A stretch of DNA of 64,000 bases from the IMG/VR virus record IMGVR_UViG_3300045988_151578, one strand, 5' to 3'. The notes beneath the pieces were generated by a model. That model was not told where the DNA came from. It worked only from the letters and a program-made list of their open reading frames with translations, and did not search any database. The DNA is from a virus. Shown one piece after another: positions 859 to 58,244 of this stretch. Every line of letters starts with the position of its first letter. Positions within the stretch are counted from its first letter, which is position 1. Made by a program: the position numbers and the translations under genes.

Positions 859-1713
859 TTATCTCTTTACTACGTCATTGTAAATCTTATCCTTAATATT
901 GTTTGGGAATACCACATCCCTATACCATCTAAGGAAGAACTTAGAGGGTTTCTTTTCTGGGTTCATAAGTAATTGCCTTTGTTCTGTAGAGAATTTTATT
1001 CTTTCCTCCTCTAACATCCAAGCAGGCATCTTTGTAAACTCAACTGTATTAAAGTTCAATACCTTCTTACCCACATCTATTTTTAATGGGTGTTTTCTTT
1101 CCTTATATAAATATGGTACTACCTTACGTGATGGTCCATTGATTATAGAGAACCCAAATATTATCATAGGATCAAATTTATCTGATTTAGGATCTTTAGC
1201 TCTCTTTATACATCTTACCATCCATGATAAAGAATTCAGATATTGATGGTTCTGATTTGGTTCTCCAATATCCCGGGTATGAAATGGAAAATCCTTAAAG
1301 TGATACAACAGGTCCTCAGTTAGGACAAATACAAATCCCAGATCTCTCAAGTATTTAATAATACTATCCTGGTTTTCTCCATCTTTAACTTTATTCTCTA
1401 CATTTAATAGGATATCCTCCCTGGGTGATTCTATTTGAGTTGAAGCATTAGATGAGGGTCTTCCTCTACCTACTGATGGCTCCTTTAAAGGTAAATTTCC
1501 TACTAATTGATCCAAGTAATTCTTAAAAGATTCAATATCAGATTTATTAGTAAGAGTAACTTCTACTCTTATAGGACCATTATGCTGTATTTTAGGACCT
1601 GAATTTAATTCAGTATAAGCATCTACAAGTCTATCCTGAATATAACTACCATTTTCAGTTAAGGTAGTTATTCTCATCTTTGGTTTATATTTCTTTTCTT
1701 CTGTGGGTTCCAT
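859..1713 (-). CDS. hypothetical protein (start revised from 1749 to 1713)
   Basis: The ORF-track start at 1749 lies inside terminator stem 1742-1766. The next in-frame ATG at 1713 (MEPTEEKK..) follows the T-run by 21 nt and is preceded by the leader AACTTTAAAAACACAT, which is also seen upstream of the capsid gene. Confidence 0.6.
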   Translation of the reverse strand: MEPTEEKKYKPKMRITTLTENGSYIQDRLVDAYTELNSGPKIQHNGPIRVEVTLTNKSDIESFKNYLDQLVGNLPLKEPSVGRGRPSSNASTQIESPREDILLNVENKVKDGENQDSIIKYLRDLGFVFVLTEDLLYHFKDFPFHTRDIGEPNQNHQYLNSLSWMVRCIKRAKDPKSDKFDPMIIFGFSIINGPSRKVVPYLYKERKHPLKIDVGKKVLNFNTVEFTKMPAWMLEEERIKFSTEQRQLLMNPEKKPSKFFLRWYRDVVFPNNIKDKIYNDVVKR

Positions 1714-1734
1714 ACAATATGTGTTTTTAAAGTT

Positions 1735-1766
1735 AAAAAAAGGGAGCATAAGTTACTTATGCTCCC
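1735..1766 (-). terminator. rho-independent terminator after CDS 1811-2416
   Basis: Perfect 11-bp stem GGGAGCATAAG (1742-1752) / CTTATGCTCCC (1756-1766) with a 3-nt loop. On the minus strand it is followed by TTTTTTT (1741-1735). Confidence 0.85.
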
Positions 1767-1810
1767 CATCATGAGTGGTTTTAATTAAATTATCGAGGAG
1801 ACTTAGTGTA

Positions 1811-2416
1811 TTAATCCTCTTCTTTCTTTGATTTAGCCTTCTTCTTAGTCTTATCCTTTTTAGATGAGACCTCTTCTTTCTTGGCCGACTTCTCCGGTTT
1901 TAAAGTATCCTTAGATTTGTCTTTCTTGGGTTTATCCTCCTTATCCTTTGGAGCCTGATTCTTCTTCCTCATCTCCATGCGATATTTTTTCTTTTCGGCT
2001 GAGTTCATTTCCCGGCCATCGATCAGAGGATAATCATACTTGCATCGTTTAGGATCAGATTTCTTAGTTTCCTTCTCCTTACCCTTAACTTCTGATGCCT
2101 TAACTGTTTTCTTTGATTTTTCCTTCAGGCTTTTAGCTGTCTTAGCTTCTTCCAGCTTTTCTTTCTTCATTTTCTTCATAATACTTTTCTTTATTTTAAT
2201 GGTTAAATAGTTTTTTCTACTTTTACCCAGATCATTCAGGGGATATTCAAATTGTATTTTATCTCTTTCCTTATTTATCTTTAAGAGAAGCAATCTGATA
2301 GTTTTACCATGAATTGGATCTTTACTGTAATCCTTTAAAAAGCTCAGATTATGTTTTTTCATATAATCGAAAAGCTCTTTTTTGGTTTTACTTAATTCGG
2401 GAGTATAGTTTTCCAT
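1811..2416 (-). CDS. lysine-rich hypothetical protein
   Basis: 201-aa ORF. The C-terminal two-thirds is low-complexity K/E/S-rich (..KKEKLEEAKTAKSLKEKSKK.., ..KKDKTKKKAKSKKEED). Confidence 0.6.
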   Translation of the reverse strand: MENYTPELSKTKKELFDYMKKHNLSFLKDYSKDPIHGKTIRLLLLKINKERDKIQFEYPLNDLGKSRKNYLTIKIKKSIMKKMKKEKLEEAKTAKSLKEKSKKTVKASEVKGKEKETKKSDPKRCKYDYPLIDGREMNSAEKKKYRMEMRKKNQAPKDKEDKPKKDKSKDTLKPEKSAKKEEVSSKKDKTKKKAKSKKEED

Positions 2417-2432
2417 TTCCTATCTTTATTAA

Positions 2433-2813
2433 TTAATAGAATTCGTCCACTATATATGGGTTATGGTATATCTTTATTTCTAGGATTTTAATATTTATAT
2501 GTTTTATGATACCAATAGCTTTATAGATGATATTTACATCCTCGAAATCTGATACATTAGGCAATATGCCTTTTTTCAATACTCCATTAATTTCTAACTT
2601 AACTATGGCTATATTTGATGATATAAGTTTTTTGAACCTATATACCTCACTGTTTAAGGTTTTATTCTTTAATTTAAGTTGAACAAGGTAATTTCTAGCT
2701 AAAGAGGTTTTATTATTCCTGATAGCCTTATTATATAAATCCTCTATCTCCTTAACTTGAAGATATAATTGATTTATACGTTGAATTTTATCACTAATTT
2801 CACTCATCACCAA
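2433..2813 (-). CDS. hypothetical protein
   Basis: 126-aa ORF on the coding strand, overlapping the upstream ORF by 7 nt. No motif recognised. Confidence 0.55.
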   Translation of the reverse strand: MVMSEISDKIQRINQLYLQVKEIEDLYNKAIRNNKTSLARNYLVQLKLKNKTLNSEVYRFKKLISSNIAIVKLEINGVLKKGILPNVSDFEDVNIIYKAIGIIKHINIKILEIKIYHNPYIVDEFY

Positions 2814-3058
2814 TTGGGTTTTTTAATGGTTCTATTTTCATTATCCTCTCTTAAATCATCCAGGACTTCTTGTGATATCCTTTTTAAGTTTTCTAGAAAT
2901 TCCTTATCTTCTAAACTTATAGAATTATCATATTCTTTAAGAAATTCCTCTAGATCTTCATTAAAATAGGATACGGATATAGCAATAACTGATAATTTAA
3001 GAACTTGATCATCAAAACCTAAATGGCTTAATTCCTTTTTTAAATCAGATAGTTCCAT
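2807..3058 (-). CDS. hypothetical acidic protein
   Basis: 83-aa ORF on the coding strand. No motif recognised. Confidence 0.5.
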   Translation of the reverse strand: MELSDLKKELSHLGFDDQVLKLSVIAISVSYFNEDLEEFLKEYDNSISLEDKEFLENLKRISQEVLDDLREDNENRTIKKPNW

Positions 3059-3070
3059 AAGATAATATAA

Positions 3071-3113
3071 TAAAAATCCCCAATCCTTGGAAATATTTCC
3101 TTAGACTGGGGAT
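3071..3113 (-). terminator. rho-independent terminator after CDS 3181-3576
   Basis: Outer stem ATCCCCA (3076-3082) / TGGGGAT (3107-3113) encloses an inner palindrome GGAAATATTTCC. On the minus strand it is followed by TTTTATTATATT. Confidence 0.6.
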
Positions 3114-3180
3114 CGGGTATAAACCAGTTATAATATGAACAAAAATTACTTAGCAGATCTATCGGCAGATAGTAGAAGGA

Positions 3181-3576
3181 TTAATCTTCAGAATCCTCTT
3201 CTTCCTTATCCTTACCCTTTTTCTTATCCTTCTTAGGTTTCGGACTTGTTATAGTTCCGTGACCTTTTTTGGATTTAACGGTAAGTTTACCGGGAACGAA
3301 TGCTACGGAATTTGATATGGGTTTATCATCTACTACCAATACGGAAGTAATTACAACTCCCTGGTAACCGTCTTTGCCCTTGACCGGGTAACCGTAGTTA
3401 AGGATCTTTGAATTTTCAGATACTGGGATTACGTCCATTTGTTTACTGTTCGGCCTTTGTTCTGCAGGTCTATTTTTCAGAGCTTCCTGACGGGCTTTTC
3501 TTTTTGCCAGTTTCTCGGCCATTTTCTCTTCTTTAGAAACTTCTGGTTTCTTTACATCTTTCTCTTTCTTTGCCAT
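3181..3576 (-). CDS. basic (Lys-rich) hypothetical protein
   Basis: 131-aa ORF with N-terminus MAKKEKDVKK and a K-rich tail. It shares the start context TTAAAACAATGGCAAAGAAA with the next gene. Confidence 0.6.
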   Translation of the reverse strand: MAKKEKDVKKPEVSKEEKMAEKLAKRKARQEALKNRPAEQRPNSKQMDVIPVSENSKILNYGYPVKGKDGYQGVVITSVLVVDDKPISNSVAFVPGKLTVKSKKGHGTITSPKPKKDKKKGKDKEEEDSED

Positions 3577-3613
3577 TGTTTTAATTTATTAAAAGGTTAT
3601 ACGTTGATATGAC

Positions 3614-4126
3614 TTATTTCTTTGACTTCTTAGATTTAGCAGCCTTCTTTGGGAGAGTTATGCCCAATTTCTTGGCAACATCCTTACGAAGTTTTTCTAC
3701 CTCATCCTCATCATAGTCATCAGGATCTATATCGAGATCATTGTCTTCGCAAACATCTTCGAGTTCTTCGAAGTCCATCTCAGCCAAAGATTCCGGAGTT
3801 ATTTCCTCTTCATCCTCCTCATCTTCCTCTTCATCATCATCTTCATCTTCGTCCTCATCTTCTTCGGAGTCATCATCCTCATCCTCTTCTTCCTCGTCGT
3901 CATCGTCATCTTCGTCAGAATCATCGGAATCCTCATCGTCTTCCTCATCATCTTCGTCATCCTCTTCCTCTCCGAAGATAGATGTAAACTCCTCTGCTGA
4001 GATTGTGAGGGGAGCCAGGATAATCTGAATCGAGCCATCTTCAAACTTTACGATTACTGTACCATTTTCAAGAGTAGTTCTAGAAACTTCTTTTACCTCT
4101 TTCTTGTTAGCTTTTTTCTTTGCCAT
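3614..4126 (-). CDS. poly-acidic protein (about 100-residue D/E tract)
   Basis: 170-aa ORF. It has a basic N-terminus (MAKKKANKK), a short beta-like segment, an almost uninterrupted Asp/Glu tract, and a basic C-terminus (KKAAKSKKSKK). Confidence 0.65.
   Translation of the reverse strand: MAKKKANKKEVKEVSRTTLENGTVIVKFEDGSIQIILAPLTISAEEFTSIFGEEEDDEDDEEDDEDSDDSDEDDDDDEEEEDEDDDSEEDEDEDEDDDEEEDEEDEEEITPESLAEMDFEELEDVCEDNDLDIDPDDYDEDEVEKLRKDVAKKLGITLPKKAAKSKKSKK
3790..3975. repeat. low-complexity trinucleotide-biased tract (GAN codons)
   Basis: Runs of tca/tcc/tct triplets on the plus strand encode the D/E tract. They also generate three artefactual shadow ORFs. Confidence 0.8.
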
Positions 4127-4161
4127 TGTTTTAAATTTTTAAAGTTAAACTTAAGTGATTA

Positions 4162-4365
4162 CTATTTACCTAATATTTTCATGTATCCATCGGAAGCATG
4201 TTCTTTATTATATTGTTTTACTTCTTCTAGAAGAGCAGTAAATTTTACATGGTCTTCTATTTCTACAGGATCCGATTGGATTATTTTATTATCTTTATAT
4301 GTATGAATATACATCTGACCATCGTTATTAATGGTTTCTGTATGTTGTAATGTTTTCAGTTCCAT
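4162..4365 (-). CDS. hypothetical protein
   Basis: 67-aa ORF on the coding strand. Confidence 0.5.
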   Translation of the reverse strand: MELKTLQHTETINNDGQMYIHTYKDNKIIQSDPVEIEDHVKFTALLEEVKQYNKEHASDGYMKILGK

Positions 4366-4973
4366 ATTGAAATGAATTTTGAATTTGAATAGTTTATCTT
4401 AGTATATCCCGGGATACCCATAAGTTCAAAACTTGAGTGAATATCTGGGATTTTTCTTTTCAAAAGATAATAGTTATTGGTATACTTTCTAGGAAAGATG
4501 TACCAAGTACCATTAATTGGCCTATTAGAAGTTATATAGCAATACTTCTTTGAAAGCCTTTCATATTTGGGATAATTATCCTTAGTTAGGGGTATATATC
4601 CCTTATATATAAATTGCTTTTCTAGATATTTATCCTTAATATAAGGAATAGAATTACCATTAAATTTAGTAAACTCCTCTAGAAACTTACCATATAACCC
4701 ATTTTTTACATATTTAGTTGCCCTCCTTATTGACCTCTTTATTGACCATTTCTTTCTTTTTAACAGGTGTATAGTTAGATCCCCTATAATCGACGACTTT
4801 ACCATGTCTGTAGAAGACAATATCTTCTTCTCTGATTCCGAGAGATTTGCATACCTCCGGTAAGATAAGTTTATACGCCTTATATCTGTTAGACTGTAAA
4901 TATCTAGGACTGAAGCCAAGTCTATATCCGTAATATTTGCGTATGAGTTCTTGATTAAATTTCTTCTTGCCAT
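4356..4973 (-). CDS. hypothetical protein, or the 3' portion of a split gene; 5' boundary uncertain
   Basis: 205-aa ORF overlapping ORF 4714-5376 by 260 nt in the +1 register. It has no ATG downstream of the partner's stop, so the real start is unclear. Confidence 0.4.
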   Translation of the reverse strand: MARRNLIKNSYANITDIDLASVLDIYSLTDIRRINLSYRRYANLSESEKKILSSTDMVKSSIIGDLTIHLLKRKKWSIKRSIRRATKYVKNGLYGKFLEEFTKFNGNSIPYIKDKYLEKQFIYKGYIPLTKDNYPKYERLSKKYCYITSNRPINGTWYIFPRKYTNNYYLLKRKIPDIHSSFELMGIPGYTKINYSNSKFISIWN

Positions 4974-5376
4974 GTTTTATTTGCCTATACATGAAAACTC
5001 TAAAATATCTTCTCCTATGCTTAGTTAAGAGATAATCAGGTGGAGTAACCCATTTCCTTACCTTCCTGGGTTTTCCTTTAAAGAATACCCTATCTATGTA
5101 TTTCTTGGGAAAGGTTCTTAACCCATTACGATATAACCTTTTACCACTGACTACCCTTACTTCAAGTAAAGCATCTACTCCCAATAGTATGGTTAACATC
5201 TTCTTGGCATGTAATCTAGTATAATAGGGTATGCCACATATATGTTTCCTATATAGGAATTTACCTGATGGAGTTACTTTATTGTAGGATTTACTACAAT
5301 ATTCTTTTGGAATGTAACTCCATAGGTAATACCTATTACGATGGACAACATATTTACTTTCAGCTAACCTAACCAT
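4714..5376 (-). CDS. hypothetical protein, or the 5' portion of a split gene
   Basis: 220-aa ORF that looks protein-like to its end (..GIREEDIVFYRHGKVVDYRGSNYTPVKKK..). It terminates just after an A-rich run and a 12-nt tandem duplication. Confidence 0.5.
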   Translation of the reverse strand: MVRLAESKYVVHRNRYYLWSYIPKEYCSKSYNKVTPSGKFLYRKHICGIPYYTRLHAKKMLTILLGVDALLEVRVVSGKRLYRNGLRTFPKKYIDRVFFKGKPRKVRKWVTPPDYLLTKHRRRYFRVFMYRQIKHGKKKFNQELIRKYYGYRLGFSPRYLQSNRYKAYKLILPEVCKSLGIREEDIVFYRHGKVVDYRGSNYTPVKKKEMVNKEVNKEGN

Positions 5377-5938
5377 TTTTCATATCTCTTTTAGCTTTCC
5401 TATACCAAAGATTTATGGATTTGTCATTAGCATCGGGGAATTTTTTCTTAACCCTGCGTAATACCCTTTCAATACTAAATCCTTTATGAACCAATTCGAA
5501 TGTGTAGGATTTCTTAGTACCCTTAATAAGGTTAAATTCGTCTCTTTCCTTTGGAGGTTTCTTTTCTCGAGGTTTCTTTATCCCGGGAACTCTTTTAGAT
5601 CTCCTTACTCCATTTTCGTCTTCTTCTCCGAGAAACCCAAGCCTTAATCTTGAACTCCTTAATGGATCATCTTTATCATAACCCAGGGATTCCAATTGTT
5701 TATCCATCCAATCGTCATATTGATTAATTAGATCCTTATTGGGTTTTTCCGTAGAATTGTTTATATAGGATATTAAACCAAATACTCCAGATTTACAAGC
5801 ATCTGGAAAAGGCATACCCAATATAACAGCTTTACGTTTCAAATCCTTATAAGTAAGGTTTCTACCGGATGCCGTTAATAAATTGGTCTTCTCCTTTGAA
5901 GAAAGCTTTGGTTTTAATTTTTTCTTACTTATTGCCAT
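5369..5938 (-). CDS. hypothetical basic protein
   Basis: 189-aa ORF on the coding strand. No motif recognised. Confidence 0.6.
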   Translation of the reverse strand: MAISKKKLKPKLSSKEKTNLLTASGRNLTYKDLKRKAVILGMPFPDACKSGVFGLISYINNSTEKPNKDLINQYDDWMDKQLESLGYDKDDPLRSSRLRLGFLGEEDENGVRRSKRVPGIKKPREKKPPKERDEFNLIKGTKKSYTFELVHKGFSIERVLRRVKKKFPDANDKSINLWYRKAKRDMKNG

Positions 5939-5942
5939 GATA

Positions 5943-6335
5943 TTAATCCTTTTCCGTTGATTTTATTACGATACCCGTGATAAAGTTAGATTCAGCTATA
6001 TACTGATCTGTTTCTTCTATACTTACGTCCTTATGAGATAGTTTTTCGATAAGCCTATTATAAAATGACCGATAATGTTCTTCGGATAATTCTGGTCCTT
6101 GTTGATCGCATATTATAAAACCTCTAATCAATACTGGTAAAAATCTAGAGTATCTAAAGTTATCTTCTATAAGAGAAGAATCGGCAACATCTCCAGCCCA
6201 TTCTAGTAGGATATCATAATATTTCTCTGGAACGAAGTACATCCATAAATAATCTTTCTTATAAGTAGGATCCATATGTTGGAACGGGTTTATATAACCA
6301 TCTACCGATTTTGTTTTTTGATTATTATCATCCAT
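5943..6335 (-). CDS. hypothetical protein (first gene behind early promoter copy 2)
   Basis: 130-aa ORF. Its ATG lies 45 nt downstream of the -7 box at 6381-6388 and is preceded by the leader TGTTTCACTTTAAAAT. Confidence 0.65.
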   Translation of the reverse strand: MDDNNQKTKSVDGYINPFQHMDPTYKKDYLWMYFVPEKYYDILLEWAGDVADSSLIEDNFRYSRFLPVLIRGFIICDQQGPELSEEHYRSFYNRLIEKLSHKDVSIEETDQYIAESNFITGIVIKSTEKD

Positions 6336-6380
6336 AAATTATTATTTTAAAGTGAAACATATATTATTTAATTCTGTTTG

Positions 6381-6412
6381 CAAAATTAATACATTTATTT
6401 TTATTATGCAAA
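6381..6412 (-). promoter_or_regulatory. Bacteroidota-type promoter, conserved early cassette copy 2
   Basis: On the minus strand: TTTG (6412-6409), 20-nt spacer, TAATTTTG (6388-6381). The 16-mer TGTTTCACTTTAAAAT at 6359-6344 is identical to the one at 23170-23155. Confidence 0.8.
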
Positions 6413-6417
6413 TATTT

Positions 6418-7401
6418 CTACTTATTTTTTAAAAATAGCTCAGGTTTAGCACGTTCTACACCGGGTATATGAGTTCTAGAAGATTTTTTGGGTTTGTTAT
6501 ATTTATTAGTGAAGGCATTGTTTAACTGCTTCACATTGAAGTCTATATTATTTACCTCATTGTAATTTATGGCTTGAGAAGTTATTAACCGATATTCTGG
6601 CCAAAACTTCTGACCTAATTTTATACCTGAAGTTTTGAGATAATATTTAGATACCATAAACCCAAATGTATCTGCCTCATCCCGGGTATTAAATACATAT
6701 AAATAATGCCTTGACATTTCATCTACTACTTCTTTTAATGGTCTTATAGGCATCAATATATACTGAAATTTTTTATCTGACTTAAATAGAGCTACCCAAT
6801 ACTTTGGTTTAGAGGGTTTAACTTTATACCAGTATTTTTCTTTTATCTTGTCTATAACTAATTCAGGAACTTTCTTAATAAGATACTTGATATATATCTT
6901 ATCCTTCTTATTTAATCTCCTTTTGAATGCTGATGGTTGCTGTATAATAGATGGCAATATCCTAAAATTATTCCATCTATCAAATTCCATAATAAGTTTA
7001 TGGGTATCACTATCCCAGGATATACTAGATAACTTCAAATATGACATATTGCGTATTATACACCTATTAGTTACCTTAGGTAATACCATAGATGAATTAC
7101 CAGTATACTCCCGGGCTTGTACTCTTGACCATCTTTTTTCTATTAATGCCTCTATATAATCTTTAAATTGCTGTTCACATGGCCCATCGGGTCTAAATAT
7201 AGAAGGATGCCTTTCGAAAAAATTACTAAACAATTTAAAGAAATATTCAGATCTATCCCTTACTTCTAGATATTTATAGTGAGATAGTTTTAACATCTCT
7301 CCTACTTCCCAAGAGGATTTATTCTCGGATAGTCTTAAAAATAAAGATTGCCTCTCTATCAAAGTTAGGCAATCCCAAGCTTTATTCTGATATGCCTCCA
7401 T
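6418..7401 (-). CDS. putative HTH transcription regulator (sigma-70 region-4-like N-terminus)
   Basis: In this 327-aa ORF, LTLIERQSLFLRLSENKSSWEVGEMLKLSHYKYLEVRDRS resembles a region-4 / LuxR-type helix-turn-helix. The rest of the protein is unrecognised. Confidence 0.4.
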   Translation of the reverse strand: MEAYQNKAWDCLTLIERQSLFLRLSENKSSWEVGEMLKLSHYKYLEVRDRSEYFFKLFSNFFERHPSIFRPDGPCEQQFKDYIEALIEKRWSRVQAREYTGNSSMVLPKVTNRCIIRNMSYLKLSSISWDSDTHKLIMEFDRWNNFRILPSIIQQPSAFKRRLNKKDKIYIKYLIKKVPELVIDKIKEKYWYKVKPSKPKYWVALFKSDKKFQYILMPIRPLKEVVDEMSRHYLYVFNTRDEADTFGFMVSKYYLKTSGIKLGQKFWPEYRLITSQAINYNEVNNIDFNVKQLNNAFTNKYNKPKKSSRTHIPGVERAKPELFLKNK

Positions 7402-8126
7402 TATTTCTTGATTTTAGGTTTTCTCTTAAGTTCATTCATACGATCTAAATAATCCTGAGTAAATACATTTGGGTTAAATTCTGTATCATTAGCTATTAAC
7501 TTATCAGGATTATAATTCTCATAAACACTATAGAATATGGTATCGAAAGGTAATTTAGTAGTCATTTTACCATATTGAGGATACATAACTACTTGTACCA
7601 TTTGATTATTGTAATCTATTTCCTCTATAGTAGCATCTACACCTTCAAATGGATATTGCCTTAGTATCACATAATCACCGATTTTTAAATTCATTAGCTC
7701 TTCTACAGAATAAATCTTGTTTTTCTTAGCTAATCTCTTAAATCTAAAAACTTCAGATCTTGGTACAGTAGCTACCTTAGAAAAATCATCCCAATCTTCG
7801 GCATTATCAATACGTTTCTTTATCTTTTTATCGAATATTGTTTCTGGTGACTTTACCCAACCCCTTACTCCTGATATATTTCTCTTTAACTTGTTCAAAA
7901 AGGTTCTAGAATAAGCCTTACAAGTTGGCATTCTCATAAATCCATATTCGAAAAGAATGGGTACCTCTTCGAAATACATTTTACTTTTACGAGTTTTCTT
8001 TAATATCTGTAAAGTAGGGATTATAGCTTTTACATGCCTATATCCCTTATTAGCTAATTCATCGTTTATCCTCTTATAATATTTATTTTCTATATAAAAG
8101 AGGCAATAAGAATAAGGAGTTTTCAT
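7401..8126 (-). CDS. NusG/RfaH/UpxY-like transcription elongation (antitermination) factor
   Basis: NGN-like N-terminus: YCLFYI..INDELANKGY..VKAIIPT..EEVPILFEYGFMRM. KOW-like C-terminus: LKIGDYVILRQYPFEGVDATIEEIDYNNQMVQVVMYPQYGKMTTKLPFD. An insertion of about 70 aa lies between the two domains. Confidence 0.65.
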   Translation of the reverse strand: MKTPYSYCLFYIENKYYKRINDELANKGYRHVKAIIPTLQILKKTRKSKMYFEEVPILFEYGFMRMPTCKAYSRTFLNKLKRNISGVRGWVKSPETIFDKKIKKRIDNAEDWDDFSKVATVPRSEVFRFKRLAKKNKIYSVEELMNLKIGDYVILRQYPFEGVDATIEEIDYNNQMVQVVMYPQYGKMTTKLPFDTIFYSVYENYNPDKLIANDTEFNPNVFTQDYLDRMNELKRKPKIKK

Positions 8127-8131
8127 AATAT

Positions 8132-11361: not shown

Positions 11362-12123
11362 TTATCCTATAATATCCCATTTATTACCAAATGAATCATC
11401 AAATAAATCCTCTACGGGTATTTCTACATAATTTGGTAAAGAAGTGATATTATCTTTACCAGGAGATTTTATAAAATCTCCGCAAAGTCTTAACCTCTTA
11501 TCATGATATAATTCGTCTATTATCAAAACTCTTAGAGATTCTTTATTAGAATTAAACAAGTAACCATATACTATATTACGATCTTGTTTGATAACTTTAA
11601 ATCCCCATAAATTCAATAGAAACTCCATAGTATGGTATACTTGCATTTGAAAATACCTACTGGTGATCCTTTTACTATTATTCTCTATTGACCAATCTAT
11701 ATCTTTAGGAGTATAACCTAGTATGATAAGACGATTACAGTGTTTAAACAACAAGTTTAGGCATAGACCAAGAAAATGTTCCATTTCACAATCTGGTAGA
11801 TATTTAGATTGCTTAAGGAAAAAATAAGTAGCTAAATCCAAATAACCTCTATCAGTAATGTAATCATTACCTTCATCTATATAAGAACGGTATAGTTTAG
11901 ATCTAAGGTTTAATAGTTTAGCATCCTGCATATACAATTCTCTTGAATCCTTAGACAACATATCTAAATGACTTACATTTTTTGTATCTGGTACTAAATC
12001 AGACATAGAGCTTGATACAAAATTAAGTTCATTTTCCATGTTTAAATACTTTGGTAAAGCTTTAGCTAAAGTGGTTTTACCAATACCACTTGGACCGGAT
12101 ATTTGTACGTATTTTTTACACAT
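11362..12123 (-). CDS. P-loop deoxynucleoside / dNMP kinase-like protein
   Basis: Walker A ISGPSGIGKTTLAKAL, a DRG..D..TYF segment (ITDRGYLDLATYF) and a basic lid-like KRITSRY. Confidence 0.5.
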   Translation of the reverse strand: MCKKYVQISGPSGIGKTTLAKALPKYLNMENELNFVSSSMSDLVPDTKNVSHLDMLSKDSRELYMQDAKLLNLRSKLYRSYIDEGNDYITDRGYLDLATYFFLKQSKYLPDCEMEHFLGLCLNLLFKHCNRLIILGYTPKDIDWSIENNSKRITSRYFQMQVYHTMEFLLNLWGFKVIKQDRNIVYGYLFNSNKESLRVLIIDELYHDKRLRLCGDFIKSPGKDNITSLPNYVEIPVEDLFDDSFGNKWDIIG

Positions 12124-19053: not shown

Positions 19054-19093
19054 AGTTTTAATTATTTATTGTTAATCTATAGCAAACGGTCTA

Positions 19094-20029: not shown

Positions 20030-20030
20030 A

Positions 20031-20879: not shown

Positions 20880-20881
20880 AA

Positions 20882-47020: not shown

Positions 47021-47719
47021 TTATTGTTGAATATGTAATATAGTCATATCAGTTTCTTCTTTACCATAAGCTCCTATTAAGGTAATTATATCATTGATAG
47101 GTTTTATATCTTCATCGGTAATATTAGAATAATCTATGATACTGTCATTACATGTGTAACTATATACTTTCTCTAATATGCCATGTTCTTTATCATTATA
47201 ATCATAATAATTACCAATCTCTACATATATATTACCAGTAGGTTGTAATTTTTTATTTACCCAATCCTTAAAATCTCCAATATAAGGTACCAGATAACCT
47301 CTAGCAGGTAATGATAAATACATGATATTATGTAATAACCTTAATTCTGGCATATTGTTAGCTACCAGATGAACATCTATAGAAATGTCCTTAGTTTCAA
47401 AAGGATGCTCTACTCTATTAAAGTTACCATTGGCATTATCTTCTATGGCATATTTTTCCATACCAATCATACCCGGGTAGTATGCTTGCAAATCTAGGGT
47501 TATTCTTGGGCATATTTTAGCTCCTCTAGTTTGATTATTTCCAACTCCAAAGATACTTACAAAGTTTTTAATACTACTTTTATCTTGTTCATAACGAGAT
47601 TCATTCTCCTGGGATATTGGTAAATAATCGTCGGGATTTAAGGTTAACCCCATATTTATAGCAGTACTAAGTAAACTGGCATAAAAAGTTCTTTCAACTA
47701 TTTCCTCTGAGTTTACCAT
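47021..47719 (-). CDS. neck / tail-completion candidate (hypothetical)
   Basis: 232-aa ORF between the head-tail joining genes and the sheath gene. Confidence 0.45.
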   Translation of the reverse strand: MVNSEEIVERTFYASLLSTAINMGLTLNPDDYLPISQENESRYEQDKSSIKNFVSIFGVGNNQTRGAKICPRITLDLQAYYPGMIGMEKYAIEDNANGNFNRVEHPFETKDISIDVHLVANNMPELRLLHNIMYLSLPARGYLVPYIGDFKDWVNKKLQPTGNIYVEIGNYYDYNDKEHGILEKVYSYTCNDSIIDYSNITDEDIKPINDIITLIGAYGKEETDMTILHIQQ

Positions 47720-49914: not shown

Positions 49915-51144
49915 TTATATAAACTTGCTCTTTAAAGTATCAATCTCTTTTCTTAATCTCTGTATCTCTAATACTAATAAAGAGGTATAATCAACTGATT
50001 TATACCCTTTATCATCTTCTACAACTAAGTTATTAAGTCCTGCCTTCTCCAAATCTTGAGCTATTACTCCATAAGACTTAACCTTATTTTTGTCTTTCTT
50101 ATAGTTAAACTCTTTAAACTCAATATTGGTAAGTTTATTCAGATCCTCAGTAATAGGATTTATATTCTCTTTTAATCTCTCATCAGAAGTTTGAGTAACT
50201 TTTGGTGTTGTAATAGAACCATCAGAATAATTTATGATAGTCCTTTGATTACCCAACTGCATATTCTTATTGGCCTGACAAACTATAAAAGCATAATCTC
50301 CAGTACCATCTGCAGTATCTACTTTTGCTTTGGTCTGTCTTACAAATCTCCAATCTCCATTATTAGTATAAACTTGGAAAGAACACTCTGCTTGACCTCC
50401 AAAATCATTTATATAGCTCTCTGCCAGCCAACTTTCATACTTAGCATAATAATCAACGGGTATAACTAAACCTTTTAGGGTTGTCTTACCATTTACTGTA
50501 AGATTATCTGTAACAGTTCCTCCACTTAATGGTAAATAAGTTTTTCCTCCATGAGATGTATATAAACTACTTAACTGCGAAGCCTGGATAGATGTCATGA
50601 ATCCATTAGTAGAAGCTGATGCTTGAGGCATACTTACCTTTATCATTTGAACATCTGGAGATGATGTATTTATAGGATCTCTGAAAGTAGTATGTTGAGC
50701 TACTAGTGGACCGTTAAAGAACAATCCAAACTTATTATCTTCAATATTTATATCATGTAAAGTAGTACCAGGAGAAGTGAGAGAATTAGAAATAGACTTG
50801 TTAAAGAATACATGCTTTACTATCTTGGCTTTATCAGTAGCAACTTCATCAAGATTGGCTTTATCATTTTTAGACATCAATCCATCCTGTGAAGTACTAG
50901 CCAAACCTAAATCAGTTATATCAGATTTACTATGAGTATGATCAGCATCAGCTTTCTCATTTAATTTACTCTGTAAACTACTTATATCCGATTTAGTGGC
51001 ATACCCAGATAAATCTGGTTGACCACCATATATTATACCCTTAAAGAGGATTACACCTGTATCCTTAGCAAAATATAAACCTCCAGAATGGGAAGGAGGG
51101 CTATAAGAGCCCTCCTTCCCCTCAAAGAATTTTAACAAAGCCAT
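49915..51144 (-). CDS. tail fibre with a C-terminal intramolecular-chaperone (peptidase S74) domain
   Basis: C-terminal TSDERLKENI..EFKEFNYKKD..SYGVIAQDLEKAG..VDYTSLLVLEIQRLRKEI is the S74 auto-cleaving chaperone signature. The start is taken at 51144 (MALLKFF..), 1 nt after the upstream stop codon. The N-terminus is homologous to that of the next fibre. Confidence 0.8.
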   Translation of the reverse strand: MALLKFFEGKEGSYSPPSHSGGLYFAKDTGVILFKGIIYGGQPDLSGYATKSDISSLQSKLNEKADADHTHSKSDITDLGLASTSQDGLMSKNDKANLDEVATDKAKIVKHVFFNKSISNSLTSPGTTLHDINIEDNKFGLFFNGPLVAQHTTFRDPINTSSPDVQMIKVSMPQASASTNGFMTSIQASQLSSLYTSHGGKTYLPLSGGTVTDNLTVNGKTTLKGLVIPVDYYAKYESWLAESYINDFGGQAECSFQVYTNNGDWRFVRQTKAKVDTADGTGDYAFIVCQANKNMQLGNQRTIINYSDGSITTPKVTQTSDERLKENINPITEDLNKLTNIEFKEFNYKKDKNKVKSYGVIAQDLEKAGLNNLVVEDDKGYKSVDYTSLLVLEIQRLRKEIDTLKSKFI

Positions 51145-51145
51145 A

Positions 51146-52669
51146 TTATACTTCAATTAAAGTTAGAGCAGTCTCCAAAGCTGCAACTCTAGTCTGAAGC
51201 GAGTTGAGATCATTCTGCTTAGCATAAGTAGTAGTGATCACATTACCACTTGCATCCTGAGTAGCTTTGGTAGCTGATGTTGCAGTATTAGCATTACCCT
51301 TAAGATTACCCTTAAAGGTAGCAGCTGTAAGAGTTTTTGTAGACGGGTTGAAAGTAATACCATTACCTTTCTGTACTCCCTTAGTTTCCTGGTCTGTATT
51401 ACCAGCAGTACCGGCCAACAATACGTTATATTCACCGTTAGTAACATTTACAGCATTCTGAAGAACATTCTGGTCAGTCCAAGGTACAGAAACGTAAGCT
51501 TTTTCACTGTCGAGTTTAACGGCATAGTTCTTACCGCTTTCACTATATCCAATTTGAATACCTCCTCGAACACCTGATGCAGCCAAAGGTAGAGAATAGT
51601 TACTCAAACTCTCAAGCTTAGTCTTATCACCCTTAGACATAAGACCTGCAGCTGCAGTAGAAGCTAATGATAGCGTTACAACTTTATTTGAACCTGAAAG
51701 TGTGTGGAAAGTCAAAGTACCATTACTTGTACCGGCAGCCCAAGTAATGTTAGTACCAAGAGCATCACTCTTCTTAGCATAAGTAGCATCAATATTGAGA
51801 CCCTCAATAGCTGATACTTTCTTCTTGAGTGAAGCTATGTCAGTAGCATTTTGTTTACCCTTAGATCCCTCATAAGCAGTACCATGGGTTTCACCAAGAG
51901 CTATACTAGCTGATATCTCTACTAAGGCCTTACCATCCCAACGGTATAGAATGTTAGTTCTTGAAGTACTGCCCGTAGCATCCGTAAGACGGAAGTTATA
52001 GATGGTATCTTCTTTAGGATCAGTACCTTCATCCCAACCACTTGATAGTCTTTCGTAGATCTTCTTGGTATCTATTACATAGTAACGATCACCTTCTGAT
52101 ACACCAGATGATGGCAAGTTAGTACTGCTAGCTACAGCTTTCTCAATACCGAATACTCTAGCCATCTGACCATCGAGCTGAGATACTGGAATTTTGCCAC
52201 GTTCATCCAATGTAGCAACACCATTAGCAACTCCCATTTCGCTACGCTTAACCTGTGCATCATTGGTTACATTACCCAGGCTAATGTCGGTCTTAGTTAT
52301 ACTCGGATTAGAACTGATCTTCTTACCATTGATGGTATACCCATCTACTGTAGTTTTTACAGCATTTATTGCCTGCTGCTGAGCAGTAGATACTGGTTTG
52401 TTAGCATCAGAAGTATTATCTACATTACCAAGTCCAACCATTGACTTGTTAAGTGTAATAGTAGTACTCTGAGTACCATCCGTATAAGCAATGGTCATAG
52501 TAGTACCACTGATATCTACACTCTTAACGGCTTTAAAAGATGTAGACATACCGTAAGATATACCCTGGAAGATAATCTCTTTGGTATCAGTAGCAAAGTA
52601 TACACCATACGGATAGGTTTCTTGTACATAAGAGGCTTTTTTACCTACAATAAAATTAATAAGTGCCAT
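51146..52669 (-). CDS. tail fibre protein
   Basis: The N-terminal MALINFIVGKKASY..GVYFATDTKEIIFQGISYG is homologous to that of the S74 fibre. Fibre-repeat motifs are present (AAAGLMSKGDKTKLESL, GNV.N). G+C is elevated. Confidence 0.7.
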   Translation of the reverse strand: MALINFIVGKKASYVQETYPYGVYFATDTKEIIFQGISYGMSTSFKAVKSVDISGTTMTIAYTDGTQSTTITLNKSMVGLGNVDNTSDANKPVSTAQQQAINAVKTTVDGYTINGKKISSNPSITKTDISLGNVTNDAQVKRSEMGVANGVATLDERGKIPVSQLDGQMARVFGIEKAVASSTNLPSSGVSEGDRYYVIDTKKIYERLSSGWDEGTDPKEDTIYNFRLTDATGSTSRTNILYRWDGKALVEISASIALGETHGTAYEGSKGKQNATDIASLKKKVSAIEGLNIDATYAKKSDALGTNITWAAGTSNGTLTFHTLSGSNKVVTLSLASTAAAGLMSKGDKTKLESLSNYSLPLAASGVRGGIQIGYSESGKNYAVKLDSEKAYVSVPWTDQNVLQNAVNVTNGEYNVLLAGTAGNTDQETKGVQKGNGITFNPSTKTLTAATFKGNLKGNANTATSATKATQDASGNVITTTYAKQNDLNSLQTRVAALETALTLIEV

Positions 52670-52694: not shown

Positions 52695-54803
52695 TTAAAT
52701 TACGAATTGTATAGTTAATGAACCATATAAATCGGTTTTAACCTTCGATAAATCTTTCTGTATAGCCTCAATAGAACTTGTATTGTTATCTATTTTAGAT
52801 CCCAAATCCAATTCCATATTGGCATCTGCATCTTTACGATCTTGAATCTCTTTTGCTAAGGCAGTATCTATATCATTTAACTGACCTTCAATACCGGTTA
52901 CCTTATCATTAAATCTAGATTGTAATTCCTCTCTAGCTTCAACTTCTGTATCAAGATCTTGTCTAAGTGTAGCTGTGGTATTTTCCAAAGCTACTACTCT
53001 TTCCTCTAAATTATTAGAACTATCAACTAAACTATCCAGAGTCTCTTTAAGGGTATCTACTCTACTCTGTAATCCCTGAATAAGTTCAAGATTACGTTGA
53101 ATATTGGCAGTATTAGTATTTATCAAATCCCTCTGAGCATCTATTCTGTCGCTTAATGCTTTATCTGCATTGCTAAGAGTAGTATTAAGATTATTAATAA
53201 TACCCGTTAAAGAATCTCTAAGAGAACTTATTTCATTAGAGATTTTACTATCCAATTCTTTATCTGCCGTCTCTCTAGCAGATTTTTCGTTATCTATGTT
53301 AGTTTGTAACTGAGCATCAGCTGTATCTACCTTAGAACCCAATGATTCTCTGGCTTCAACTTCAGTATTTAATTGTTCAGTTATAGCGGCTAATCTTTTA
53401 GTAATGGTAGCAGCAAAATTAGGATCATCACCAAGTGCCCTTGATATCTCTTCGAGAGTATCTAATACTTCAGGAGCAGAACCAATGATCTTTTCTATTG
53501 CAGCATTTACTTGTTCCTCATTCTGATAATTAGCATCATTCTCTAATTGAGATACCAGAGTTAATAACTTAGCTCCCTCATCTATGCTATTTAGTTTATC
53601 TAACAATTCATCGGTAAAGTCATTTTCTGATAAGCCTTTACCAGATTCTTTATCTACCTTACCATCTAATGAACTATTGATAGTATCTACTTTAGATTGT
53701 AAATTCTCATCATACTGTTGGAATTTAGCATCAACACTGCCAGATAAATCTGATATAGTATGCTGTATGGAAGTATCTGCATTCTCCCGGGCTTTAGCTT
53801 CGGCTTCTAAATCCTTTTGTAAAAGAGCATCAGATTGAGTTCTGTCATTGATTTCCTGAGTTACTCTTTCATCTACTTTAGTGATATTAGAGTTTACTTC
53901 AGAAATTTCATCAGTAATACGGCTATCTAAAGTATTATCAGCATCCTTACGATTCTGTATTTCCTGGGTTAAAGCATTATTTATTTCTCCAGCTTTAGTA
54001 TCTGCATAAGTCTTAGCTTCCTGTATTTTAGAAGCTAATTCTGATTTATCCGATATCTGAGTTCTAGCTAAATCCTCTATCTTATCATTTAGTGATTTCT
54101 CGGCATTTGTAGCTCTACTCTCCTCTACTTCTACAAGAGAATTGGCATAATCCTTAAGTTCACTGGCTTTACTTTCTATAGAAAGTTTAACCTTACCAAG
54201 ATCTGATTCAATACCCGAAATATCATCTTGCAAAGTACCAATACTATTCATCAATTCTGATTTGATACTATCGGCTTTGTTTGATACTTCGGCTATCTTA
54301 GCTAGTAGATTAGTATTGAAACTATCAAGTTCTTGTCTAATACTGTTTTCAGCAGCAGTAGCTCTACCTATCTCTGTATTAAGAGCATTAGATAAATCGG
54401 TTATTTTATTAAGGATAGTTGTAGCAAAATTGGGATCATTGTTAAGAGCATCGGCTAACTCTTTAAGAGTATCCAACGCTTCTCCTGAACCATCTATCAA
54501 ATCATTTATTGCCTTTTCTACATCTTCCTTAGTTTGAAATTCTAAGTCATTCTCTAATTGAGATACCTTAGTTATAATATGATTAGTACACTCCTCTAGC
54601 TTAAGTTTAAGTTCATCAGTAAAGTCATTTTCTGATAAACCTTTACCTGGCTCTTTATCTACCTTATTAGATAGGGAGAGTACAAAAGTTAGAAAATCTC
54701 TGAAAGTTCCTTCAAACCCGGCTTCCACAAAATCATTGTAATAACCTTGTTTAAGTCTCTCATCTATTTCTTCTCCACTTGAATAATACTTACTTACATA
54801 CAT
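52695..54803 (-). CDS. coiled-coil fibre (fibritin/whisker-like) with an internal duplication
   Basis: A unit of about 100 aa occurs twice (GKGLSENDFTDEL..VSQLEND..LDTL[KE]E[LI]..A L..DPNF A.TI). Heptad-rich Asp/Glu/Ser coiled coil lies between and after the two copies. Confidence 0.7.
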   Translation of the reverse strand: MYVSKYYSSGEEIDERLKQGYYNDFVEAGFEGTFRDFLTFVLSLSNKVDKEPGKGLSENDFTDELKLKLEECTNHIITKVSQLENDLEFQTKEDVEKAINDLIDGSGEALDTLKELADALNNDPNFATTILNKITDLSNALNTEIGRATAAENSIRQELDSFNTNLLAKIAEVSNKADSIKSELMNSIGTLQDDISGIESDLGKVKLSIESKASELKDYANSLVEVEESRATNAEKSLNDKIEDLARTQISDKSELASKIQEAKTYADTKAGEINNALTQEIQNRKDADNTLDSRITDEISEVNSNITKVDERVTQEINDRTQSDALLQKDLEAEAKARENADTSIQHTISDLSGSVDAKFQQYDENLQSKVDTINSSLDGKVDKESGKGLSENDFTDELLDKLNSIDEGAKLLTLVSQLENDANYQNEEQVNAAIEKIIGSAPEVLDTLEEISRALGDDPNFAATITKRLAAITEQLNTEVEARESLGSKVDTADAQLQTNIDNEKSARETADKELDSKISNEISSLRDSLTGIINNLNTTLSNADKALSDRIDAQRDLINTNTANIQRNLELIQGLQSRVDTLKETLDSLVDSSNNLEERVVALENTTATLRQDLDTEVEAREELQSRFNDKVTGIEGQLNDIDTALAKEIQDRKDADANMELDLGSKIDNNTSSIEAIQKDLSKVKTDLYGSLTIQFVI

Positions 54804-55718: not shown

Positions 55719-55723
55719 AGTTA

Positions 55724-56587: not shown

Positions 56588-56609
56588 ACAATAAAAAAAA
56601 TAAGATTAT

Positions 56610-56996
56610 TTATTCATCATCCTTATCCAGTAATACCTCAAGTATAGATTCTACAGTATCATTATCATCATATGATACTCCATTGCGATTGGCTACTTGT
56701 TTTACCTGTTCAAGAGTATAACCCTTAGCTATTTTAGCAATAGTAAGACCATTCTTTAATTGGCCTTTCATCTTGTTAAATAGCTTATCGGGATCATCCT
56801 TAGAACCTACATCGGATTTATTCTCTACTAAAATCAAGTGACCAGAATTGATGGCCAACTGTATTCTACGAGTACGGAATTGAACTGGTGTAAGTTCTAC
56901 TACTTCACCACGGCATACCGTAATACCTGTGGACTGATCATGGAAACTATAGGCTTTATCTCCTGTAGTTACTTTATAAACCTTAGACTTTGTCAT
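56610..56996 (-). CDS. hypothetical protein downstream of the capsid gene
   Basis: 128-aa ORF preceded by the CTAT-N5-TATATAAC box. Confidence 0.5.
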   Translation of the reverse strand: MTKSKVYKVTTGDKAYSFHDQSTGITVCRGEVVELTPVQFRTRRIQLAINSGHLILVENKSDVGSKDDPDKLFNKMKGQLKNGLTIAKIAKGYTLEQVKQVANRNGVSYDDNDTVESILEVLLDKDDE

Positions 56997-57013
56997 ATTT
57001 ATTAAGAATTTAA

Positions 57014-57030
57014 GTTATATACTATAATAG
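57014..57030 (-). promoter_or_regulatory. CTAT-N5-TATATAAC box (candidate phage-specific promoter / restart)
   Basis: The minus strand reads CTATTATAGTATATAAC, abutting the long inverted repeat. The ATG at 56996 lies 17 nt downstream. Confidence 0.4.
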
Positions 57031-57124
57031 AGAGATTCTAGATATAGGCAAATGGCTAAAAAATGTTATGAATGTCTCAATTTATCAAATGAAAAGATTA
57101 TACCTAATATCTAGAAGTCTCTCT
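57029..57124 (-). terminator. long-range inverted repeat directly after the major capsid gene (terminator / mRNA 3' stabiliser candidate)
   Basis: Arms AGAGAGATTCTAGATAT (57029-57045) and ATATCTAGAAGTCTCTCT (57107-57124) give 17 bp with one bulged G and a 61-nt loop. The right arm ends 7 nt from the capsid stop codon (57132). Confidence 0.5.
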
Positions 57125-57131
57125 TATGATA

Positions 57132-58244
57132 TTACTCCAGATTTACCAGAAGATATGGATCTATGTTCATGAAATCTGGGAATCCATTGTCTGAGAACTT
57201 CTTACTTGAATCCAGCATAAGAACGGCATCCTGATACATCTTACTGAATCCTGTAGTAAGTGTAGCATATACAGCTTCTGTCTGATTAGATACTATTCTC
57301 TCAGATTCAAGCATAAGCTGTTTAGCTGTAAGCTTAATCAAAGCTGCAGACTTATCAATCATCATCAACTGATTATCTGGAGTTCCCGGGTGAATGTAGA
57401 AATCTGCAGACTTAGGGACTGGAGACTTAACATTGAGTGTTGCCTGAGTAGTTCCGTAACTCTTATCCTTGAATTCTGGGAGATCAAGTAATTCGATAGA
57501 CTGATCCTCACCACCGATCATGGTAGTAAAGTTACGGCCCATACGAGAAGCTCTTACCCAAATGTGGAGCAAGTCTTTATAAGCAATACCCTTATCAGTA
57601 TCATATACTCCAATTACTGGAGCAGATTCTGAACCATCGGCTTTGTTACCGTTGATTGCTACATCCATTGCAAGATTATCCATAGCATAACCAAGCTGAA
57701 TACCGAAATCACGGAGATATATACCAAGTACGTCAAGAGATACATAACTCTTAACTTCATCAGTGAGTTTAAAGCCCTTACCAATTTTGAACAGTCTTAC
57801 TGACTTCTGTCCATAACTGATATCTCCCAATGGGATAGTCTCAGCCTCATTTATCTTAGCCGGTGCAGCATCACTCATGTTGATAAACGGCATGATAGCT
57901 GATAGTCCATTGATTGGTTGATCAGCTGTGATAATCTGAGGATAGAAAGGTGCCTGTCTCATGCCCAGGGTAATGGCATCACGGATAATCTCTGGTACAA
58001 CCCATCTTACACTCTGATCTGGCATAGAGTATAAGTTCTGCATAGTAGTAACTCTAGTATTTATACCGATTTTTTCGAAGAGTTCTGATTGTGTAATTCC
58101 CCACTTTCCTTTTACAAACTCTTCAAAGGTAACTTCTACGGGTTTATGAGAACTATCTCCAGCACGTAGAGCATCCAAAGAATGTACTATATTCGGAAGT
58201 TCTTTCTTGAAATCCTTAGCTTCCATTTTTGTTATATCTACCAT
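57132..58244 (-). CDS. major capsid protein (HK97 fold)
   Basis: 370 aa. It follows the protease/scaffold and decoration-like genes and has elevated G+C. Its length and pattern are typical of HK97-type capsid proteins (..GKGFKLTDEV.., ..LIKLTAKQLMLESERIVSNQ..). Confidence 0.75.
   Translation of the reverse strand: MVDITKMEAKDFKKELPNIVHSLDALRAGDSSHKPVEVTFEEFVKGKWGITQSELFEKIGINTRVTTMQNLYSMPDQSVRWVVPEIIRDAITLGMRQAPFYPQIITADQPINGLSAIMPFINMSDAAPAKINEAETIPLGDISYGQKSVRLFKIGKGFKLTDEVKSYVSLDVLGIYLRDFGIQLGYAMDNLAMDVAINGNKADGSESAPVIGVYDTDKGIAYKDLLHIWVRASRMGRNFTTMIGGEDQSIELLDLPEFKDKSYGTTQATLNVKSPVPKSADFYIHPGTPDNQLMMIDKSAALIKLTAKQLMLESERIVSNQTEAVYATLTTGFSKMYQDAVLMLDSSKKFSDNGFPDFMNIDPYLLVNLE

Follow-up and report, generated by a model that had tools for sequence, protein, structure and literature searches.

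We report here that a phage of the human gut has built up a large excess of the palindromic hexamer CCCGGG in its AT-rich chromosome. The DNA analysed is a stretch of 64,000 nucleotides from IMG/VR record IMGVR_UViG_3300045988_151578 (hereafter the window; G+C content 32%), which corresponds, as its reverse complement, to a section of a contig from a human-gut metagenome (ENA ERZ28595965 scaffold_115). The window carries 18 copies of CCCGGG, and the full genome, which closes as an 80,299-bp circle, carries 22. Our analysis shows that positive selection acts on CCCGGG as a word of double-stranded DNA, in the context WWCCCGGGWW. It also shows that the excess is limited to one young clade, consisting of the present genome, its closest relative (R2) and a third member, L265, and that the sites are gained by any available substitution, preferentially a synonymous one, are retained more often than background and can give way to a new site nearby.

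CCCGGG is far more frequent than composition and codon usage predict

We called 69 minus-strand open reading frames (ORFs) in the window, which together cover 95% of its length. An earlier sequence-only reading of this DNA had listed 18 coordinates for CCCGGG; every one of them proved exact, and no extra site was found. The same reading had roughly estimated that about one copy should be expected in 64 kb. Dinucleotide-preserving shuffles (n=100) gave a mean of 1.42 copies (sd 1.25, maximum 6) against the 18 observed, and shuffles of synonymous codons within genes (n=300) gave 1.35 copies (sd 1.15, maximum 6) against the 17 sites that are genic. Markov expectations were 1.5, 1.9 and 3.9 copies for orders 1, 2 and 3, respectively, while codon sampling conditioned on the preceding base gave 1.75 copies and sampling conditioned on the two preceding bases gave 3.47 (maximum 9). 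When all 4096 hexamers were ranked by the order-1 model, CCCGGG was at the top in over-representation (z = 13.5). The comparison with codon-preserving shuffles and higher-order Markov models, which the sequence-only reading had proposed, thus leaves the count far above the codon, dinucleotide and order 1-3 nulls, and for the clade the enrichment amounts to 10-16 times expectation. It is true that an order-4 Markov model predicts as many as 8.7 copies, but this model already contains the word and its over-represented pentamers. As no dinucleotide shuffle (0/100) and no codon shuffle (0/300) exceeded six copies, and as the excess recurs in independent relatives at partly different sites, chance and codon bias are excluded as its source, and we give practically no credence to an artefact of composition or codon usage.

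All three reading frames are used. Eight of the 17 genic sites read NNC-CCG-GGN, seven read NCC-CGG-GNN and two read CCC-GGG. The earlier tally had been 9, 7 and 2, with all 18 sites placed inside minus-strand coding sequences. The use of all three registers stands, whereas the site at 4408 has to be taken out of the first class, as it is probably intergenic: ORF 4356-4973, which holds it, overlaps ORF 4714-5376 by 260 nt and is omitted by external gene callers. Whichever frame is used, CCCGGG puts one rare codon (CGG, CCG or GGG) in the word, and the sites account for 7 of 15 CGG codons for Arg and 8 of 52 CCG codons for Pro in the window.

The unit is the hexamer itself

Outside CCCGGG, the words CCCGG, CCGGG, CCGG and CYCGRG all occur at expectation, so that the unit is the hexamer. 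An AvaI-type CYCGRG, a ScrFI/BcnI-type CCSGG or CCGG was considered as the real unit and rejected, as their counts elsewhere match expectation. Little information resides in the flanks: A or T occupies positions -2/-1 in 92% of cases and C is found at -1 in 0 of 102 half-sites, but they are otherwise uninformative. The 12-bp palindrome TATCCCGGGATA, noted before at 4405-4416 and 16102-16113, is indeed present at both places; a longer motif was nevertheless rejected, because 10-12-bp palindromes are no commoner than independent flanks predict. Among all-G/C hexamers of the 80.3-kb genome, CCCGGG makes up 22 of 38 occurrences and its mirror word GGGCCC none. The density of sites is about 1 per 2.7-3.7 kb.

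Single-base variants of the word had been described as far rarer than base composition predicts. The counts given were right, but in the window these words are not depleted and lie near their own Markov expectations (ACCGGG/CCCGGT 8 vs 4.1; TCCGGG 3 vs 4.9; CCCGGC 2 vs 1.9). In the whole genome, one variant stands apart: TCCGGG on the coding strand occurs once, compared to about 10 per 80 kb in relatives, while none of CCCGGA, CCTGGG/CCCAGG and CTCGGG/CCCGAG is depleted. This near-loss of coding-strand TCCGGG is consistent with conversion of NNT to NNC codons.

Several other palindromes are missing from the window altogether, in line with the remark of the sequence-only reading that phages usually deplete such words: ATGCAT (15-20 expected), CCTAGG (7-16), GCGC (12) and CGCG (6). 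Family-wide, in 4.45 Mb, ATGCAT occurs 33 times against about 1100-1700 expected and CCTAGG twice against 465-905. These absences look like classical restriction avoidance, and the excess of CCCGGG is all the more striking because other palindromes have been purged. The runs CCCC and GGGG are also strongly depleted, with CCCC found 41 times in the window against 150 expected, and with 39 against 95 and 57 against 178 for the two runs in the full genome. Such depletion agrees with the finding that C never directly precedes the word.

Only one young clade carries the excess

R2 (IMG/VR UViG_3300045988_118240) shares 86% nucleotide identity with the present genome. It was pieced together from five loci, and it has at least 29 copies of CCCGGG against 2.5 expected. 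In L265, 11 kb contain 5 copies against 0.6 expected. Intermediate relatives, whose methyltransferase is 72% identical, have 3-4 copies against 1.3-1.8 expected. In the remaining family (4.45 Mb pooled) the ratio for CCCGGG is about 2-fold, the same as for other NCCGGN words, and a codon-aware null on 139 loci of this group gives 291 observed against 194.

The clade also has gene content of its own, namely tail-fibre/host-range genes and about 20 small genes. The proteins specific to the clade, about 20 in number, map to genome positions 61-7724, 50077-51159, 66887-67279 and 74022-76494. When the 681-aa and 468-aa tail-region proteins were used for scans, R2 was the sole match.

It was plausible to assume that each lineage enriches a palindrome of its own, as order-1 statistics pointed to TTCGAA, GGTACC, TTGCAA and others. 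This idea was rejected, since all of these signals vanish under the synonymous-codon null.

Sites are gained by any available substitution and may be relocated

The sequence-only reading had proposed looking for the excess and for conserved positions in related phages. Not only is the excess present in R2, but the positions are also conserved above background: 15 of 21 alignable sites are shared, compared to a baseline of 46% for identical hexamers (P = 0.016). A recombination hotspot might leave more similar flanks, and flank identity over 50 bp on either side is only slightly higher at shared sites (0.92) than at other conserved hexamers (0.88; P about 0.01).

Other sites are private to one phage, 6 to the present one and at least 11 to R2. 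Where one phage has a private site, the orthologous hexamer often departs from it at 2-4 of 6 bases, as in CTAAAG, TCAGAA or CAAGAG. Comparison with outgroups reveals gains through ATT to ATC, through AGA to CGG, through replacement of Lys (AAA) by Arg (CGG) accompanied by ACT to ACC, and through Asp/Glu to Gly. Site-making substitutions hit all six positions of the word, and CGG, which some of the gains create, is the rarest Arg codon. The 18 sites of the window are listed below, with codons given on the minus strand.

1272-1277: ACC CGG GAT (Thr-Arg-Asp); the orthologous position in R2 is also CCCGGG.
4408-4413: inside the 12-bp palindrome TATCCCGGGATA; probably intergenic; common to R2.
5582-5587: CCC GGG (Pro-Gly); common to R2.
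6681-6686: ACC CGG GAT (Thr-Arg-Asp); common to R2; outgroups mostly have CTAAAG (xCT AAA G), so that four substitutions made the site, Lys AAA becoming Arg CGG and ACT becoming ACC.
7110-7115: GCC CGG GAG; the R2 site lies instead 12 bp away, at 7122-7127.
15313-15318: ATC CCG GGT (Ile-Pro-Gly); common to R2; outgroups have CCCTGA (Pro-Asp/Glu), so that the gain included a non-synonymous change.
16105-16110: DNA polymerase A gene, within TATCCCGGGATA; ATC CCG GGA; common to R2; TCCGGG in 47 of 83 outgroups, so that a synonymous ATT to ATC change made the site.
18791-18796: thymidylate-synthase-like gene; AAC CCG GGA; private; R2 has CCCAGG and outgroups mostly TCCAGG.
20308-20313: ATC CCG GGA; common to R2; outgroups have TCCGGG or TCCAGG.
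24102-24107: helicase gene; ACC CGG GTA (Thr-Arg-Val); common to R2; outgroups have CCAGAA, CCCGAG and CCCGAA, so that the site was made by AGA to CGG together with a change in the codon that follows.
25322-25327: ACC CGG GAA; common to R2 and to 29 of 61 outgroup loci, thus an old site.
30052-30057: TCC CGG GAT (Ser-Arg-Asp); private; R2 has CTAAAG, four differences.
38771-38776: TAC CCG GGA; private; R2 has TCCGGG here and an extra site 436 bp off in the same gene.
40097-40102: CCC GGG; private; R2 has CCAGGT.
46178-46183: TAC CCG GGA; common to R2.
47472-47477: TAC CCG GGT; private; R2 has CCCAGG.
53786-53791: GCC CGG GAG; in a 702-aa gene that has no R2 counterpart; kept in near-identical strains.
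57385-57390: 370-aa capsid-like gene; CAC CCG GGA; common to R2 and to 55 of 78 outgroup loci; TCCGGG stands in 17 outgroups, and one strain is polymorphic for it.

Codon sequences that could become CCCGGG by synonymous change alone number 158. Twenty of them (about 13%) are realised, compared to 1.1 predicted from codon usage. At the level of strains, two polymorphisms were seen at sites, both of them C/T transitions. The pair of sites at 7110 and 7122 offers a closer look at how a site may move. Both phages encode an identical SRVQAREY peptide in the 327-aa gene 6418-7401, and the present phage spells it TCA AGA ... GCC CGG G, while R2 spells it TCC CGG G ... GCT AGA G. The word has thus been relocated by 12 bp through synonymous changes only.

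As the excess was built by mostly protein-neutral changes, it is the DNA word itself that is selected. The sequence-only reading had drawn the same conclusion from the independence of frame, and it is now supported by the restriction to one clade, the conservation of sites and the multi-nucleotide, often synonymous gains.

Sites avoid the beginnings and ends of genes

The 20 genic sites of the present phage all avoid the first 28% and the last 7% of their genes. The same holds for all 24 genic sites of R2, 11 independent gains included. Opportunities for the word are evenly spread along genes, and 29 of the 158 fall in the first quarter, but none of these has been realised (Fisher P = 0.008). 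Two intergenic sites are kept in both phages. A site near the start of a gene may thus impair expression, or else the word may have a function that is bound to gene bodies.

A symmetric DNA-binding protein may read the word

Which protein might read CCCGGG? Tentatively, we favor the idea that it is the site of a symmetric, clade- or host-specific DNA protein, that it is selected for local density, and that its role lies in replication or packaging processing or in self-marking. As a reader, a two-fold-symmetric, sequence-specific DNA protein would fit an exact G+C palindrome of 6 bp whose A/T flanks are uninformative, and its specificity would resemble that of a Type II restriction-modification enzyme. 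Since the family shares replication, modification and methyltransferase genes without sharing the excess, and since the clade has private genes, the reader is most likely clade- or host-specific. The benefit appears to scale with the local density of sites along the chromosome. The sites might then serve an enzyme that nicks, cleaves or modifies the chromosome or loads onto it, as its points of entry, marking or processing, either in recombination-dependent replication and packaging or in marking the DNA as self. A more specific scenario, which we regard as rather doubtful, is that a newly acquired phage protein or a factor of the clade's host reads WWCCCGGGWW and that the chromosome was remodelled quickly to 20-30 copies. 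We do not think that the sites are regulatory operators.

Some of our results do not sit easily with a symmetric reader of this kind. A search for a candidate among the clade-specific genes (Pfam, PHROGs) found no restriction enzyme, nickase, HNH, Vsr or ParB-like protein and no clear DNA-binding domain. Regular spacing was not seen either, as the coefficient of variation of the gaps and the largest gap both match random placement, so that a mechanism that depends on spacing finds no support here. Local compensation is suggested by the 12-bp relocation, although this is a single case. Finally, avoidance of the first quarter of genes is not predicted by a purely DNA-level function, and it may reflect an expression-related cost or role.

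Comparison with known systems shows both sides of this picture. On one hand, CCCGGG is the target of the Type II enzymes SmaI, XmaI and Cfr9I, and an exact 6-bp palindrome with uninformative flanks is a typical Type IIP specificity. On the other hand, sites of this kind should be lost from phage genomes (restriction-site avoidance, PMC6286503), while the present phage gains them, and no restriction-enzyme-like domain was found among its called genes. The chromosomes of T5-like and some other phages carry sequence-specific single-strand interruptions (nicks), whose role is unclear. They resemble the CCCGGG sites in being short recognition sequences dispersed in a virulent phage genome, those of T5 being acted on by a phage enzyme. 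However, T5 nick sites are asymmetric and concern one strand, whereas CCCGGG is palindromic, and no nicking enzyme was found among the genes of the present phage.

Cytosine-modification genes are shared by the whole family

The phage encodes what resembles a T4-type pathway to a 5-substituted cytosine. The gene at 18277-19053 codes for a thymidylate-synthase (TS) homologue with Asp at the position equivalent to Asn177, the uracil-specifying Asn (QRSSDYIQHFGNDVY). By alignment, this Asp likens it to the cytosine-specific MilA (CMP hydroxymethylase); T4 dCMP hydroxymethylase, which was not among the alignment hits, carries the same Asp. Judging from this residue, the enzyme is probably dCMP-specific. 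Its neighbours in the 18277-21658 set are a highly conserved 311-aa protein of no assigned function, a MazG-like pyrophosphatase and a dUTPase-like protein, and a nucleotide kinase-like gene lies nearby (11362-12123). About 170 bp past the end of the window, adjoining the terminase genes, there is a 339-aa C5 DNA methyltransferase-like gene (PF00145; minus strand, equivalent to about 64172-65191; L086:8031-9050). The predicted protein is divergent but motif-complete, with SPDCG rather than PCQ as motif IV, and it scores far under the NCBIfam dcm cut-off. Searches for its specificity through homologues and structures matched only family members, with no PDB relative found by sequence.

It was thus plausible that CCCGGG is the target of the phage's own C5-methyltransferase, of the dCMP-modifying pathway or of both, and that useful modified sites accumulate. 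The presence of a methyltransferase-like gene that has the full set of catalytic motifs and adjoins the terminase genes, the MilA-like Asp of the TS homologue and the fact that the CCGG core is not avoided while other C-containing palindromes are absent all speak for this possibility. Nevertheless, we consider it unlikely. The methyltransferase is a core gene found in all of about 160 relatives (63-73% identity; 94% within the enriched clade), and its putative target-recognition region (residues about 190-290) is the most conserved part, almost invariant family-wide, so its specificity should match that of relatives without enrichment. The nucleotide-pathway genes are likewise core to the whole family, which shows no specific CCCGGG excess. 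The link to the genes at 18277-21658 that the sequence-only reading had suggested is therefore not supported: modification and methyltransferase genes that are family-wide cannot alone explain a clade-specific excess, and for the same reason the methyltransferase was rejected as a sufficient cause. Moreover, methylation of a word is not known to be a reason for its enrichment, and the absence of ATGCAT, CCTAGG and GCGC argues against global protection of cytosines.

The excess differs from known over-represented words

Another possibility is that CCCGGG behaves like a Chi site, that is, a RecBCD/AddAB-type nuclease of the host reads it, stops degrading and switches to recombination, so that phages accumulate the word. 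Chi sites in E. coli have a density similar to that observed here, and the clade-specific excess coincides with clade-specific host-range genes. That phages can be positively selected for a word which the host recognises also has a precedent, namely the Chi enrichment of lambdoid phages (PMC12315714; Bobay et al. 2013, PMC3784561). The likeness goes further: in both cases a short selected word is dispersed in coding regions at one per few kb, point mutations can create it, and its value lies in number or density. Despite this, a Chi-type role is unlikely, and we rank it clearly below modification by the phage itself. Chi is asymmetric, oriented and read by a known host enzyme, while CCCGGG is its own reverse complement and encodes no orientation. 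Furthermore, Chi-enriched lambdoid phages lack a recombination module of their own (PMC12315714), whereas the present phage has a full one.

Slightly less probable still, in our view, is selection at the level of RNA or translation, in which CCCGGG would act as a rare-codon pause, as a -1 frameshift heptamer (C_CCG_GGN) or as a site where mRNA is bound or cleaved. Nearly every site is transcribed, a rare codon falls in the word whatever the frame, and the avoidance of the first roughly 28% and last roughly 7% of genes looks expression-related. Eight sites are in the X_XXY_YYZ frame that slippage would need, but these are only 8 of the 17 genic sites, and the rest are in the two other frames. 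The use of all three frames (8, 7, 2), together with the existence of conserved intergenic sites, is thus difficult to reconcile with this idea. If only rare codons mattered, the precise neighbouring bases that make the word a palindrome would not be required, and palindromy is a property of double-stranded DNA recognition; GGGCCC, the mirror word, is absent.

The last alternative is mutational. Bhagwat and McClelland (1992) and Merkl et al. (1992) reportedly attributed the over-representation of CCWGG in E. coli to very short patch (VSP) repair linked to Dcm and Vsr, and Vsr-type repair tied to a CCCGGG C5-methyltransferase could likewise turn T:G mismatches into C:G. As for CCWGG, the target of a C5-methyltransferase may become over-represented in all frames, and a C5-methyltransferase gene is present here. 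Depletion of coding-strand TCCGGG and the C/T nature of both strain-level polymorphisms also agree with it. However, the CCWGG effect is modest, involves T to C at one position and depletes the T-containing neighbour, while here the enrichment is 10-16-fold and the gains affect all six positions, with many A to C and T to G transversions (AGA to CGG, AAA to CGG) that position-specific T:G repair cannot make; the substitution spectrum thus largely refutes this explanation. In addition, CCTGGG/CCCAGG and CTCGGG/CCCGAG are not depleted, nor is CCCGGA, the other strand of TCCGGG, as would be expected under coding constraint and selection, and no Vsr family match was found in any called gene of the phage (Pfam, PHROGs), although the host might carry a vsr gene. 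VSP repair was therefore ruled out as the main cause on the basis of this spectrum, of a depletion restricted to one word on one strand and of the failure to find vsr among the phage genes, and we regard it as very improbable. A symmetric reader for which local site density matters thus remains the reading that we prefer.

The genome belongs to a family of contractile-tailed gut phages

The genome is that of a contractile-tailed phage, with a T4 gp19-like tube protein and baseplate J/gp25/V proteins. It encodes DNA polymerase A, a DnaB-like helicase and a Toprim primase for replication, and its recombination set comprises RecA-like, gp32-like, SbcC/SbcD-like, FEN-type 5'-3' exonuclease and PDDEXK-type proteins. 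Hundreds of colinear relatives of 78-88 kb are present in IMG/VR and gut metagenomes. Short-read samples with the present phage are SAMEA2338628, SAMN29183388 and ERR414236. Flandersviridae, a proposed family of gut phages of Bacteroidales, have circularly closing colinear genomes of about 85 kb with DNA polymerase A (PMC8008677). Judging by its size, circular closure, PolA, colinearity and human-gut habitat, the present genome is probably Flandersviridae-like. A search for a cultured relative in a phage collection found none, the nearest cultured TerL matches being Flavobacterium myophages at 33%.

In some relatives (MT121964.1, MT121960.1, L261 and L263), core genes are broken by inteins or introns: the DNA polymerase A match comes in 2-3 pieces, and the large terminase has 843-849 aa with an intein and NUMOD4/HNH domains. 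The same genes are uninterrupted in the present genome.

The tail-fibre gene at 49915-51144 carries a Peptidase_S74 chaperone domain, and together with its neighbours it is only 37-50% identical to R2, as opposed to 86% between the genomes overall. In the near-identical strain L087, a different 630-aa S74-domain gene stands in place of the 507-aa gene 51146-52669. It follows that host-range genes turn over rapidly.

Outside the window, a gene for a PF03013 T4-endonuclease-V-like protein (pyrimidine-dimer glycosylase; L086:5724-6197, minus strand) is found in this clade and not in other family members, although these phages live in the anaerobic dark gut. Its homologues occur in many other phage-sized gut contigs. 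We compared such contigs for an association with over-represented words: L265, a member of the same clade, is enriched, L266 has a weaker excess of TCCGGA and L268 has none, so that the association was not convincing and was dropped. L266 (ENA ERZ24773389 NODE_328, a 77.9-kb phage contig) has 22 copies of TCCGGA in 20 kb (1-20462). Twenty of them are genic, against 6.8 by codon shuffles (maximum 16 of 500), and 15 of these 20 are in one frame (x-Pro-Asp/Glu), so this excess may be a codon-pair effect. The same contig also holds an IS605-type TnpA/OrfB pair.

Other words are over-represented elsewhere in the family. In L005-L084 and L182-L260, GACCCA occurs 1360 times on the coding strand against 535 under the codon-aware null, while its reverse complement in the same loci occurs 459 times against 416, hence the enrichment concerns the coding strand only. 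TTGCCC and TGCCCA behave similarly in those loci. Such words are not enriched in the present genome.

Implications of an accumulated palindrome

Phage genomics sees short palindromes as liabilities that are purged against restriction. The present genome does purge several of them, and at the same time it has amassed CCCGGG more than 10-fold, at the cost of the rarest codons and even of amino-acid changes. If the more specific scenario of a newly acquired phage protein or a factor of the clade's host is true, CCCGGG would be the first palindromic, restriction-site-like word that is collected rather than avoided by a virulent phage. It could then be a mark of self, or it could provide loading, nicking or cleavage points for the machinery of replication, recombination and packaging, and sites would be missing from the first quarter of genes because they interfere with expression there.

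The accumulation of CCCGGG implies a sequence-specific DNA transaction in abundant uncultured phages of the human gut, and the sites provide an exact handle for finding its reader. More generally, codon-aware word statistics combined with comparison of close relatives can reveal positively selected DNA words in metagenomic phages. Should the reader be encoded by the host, CCCGGG would be a host-range marker; should it be encoded by the phage, the word would represent a new type of genome-wide cis element.

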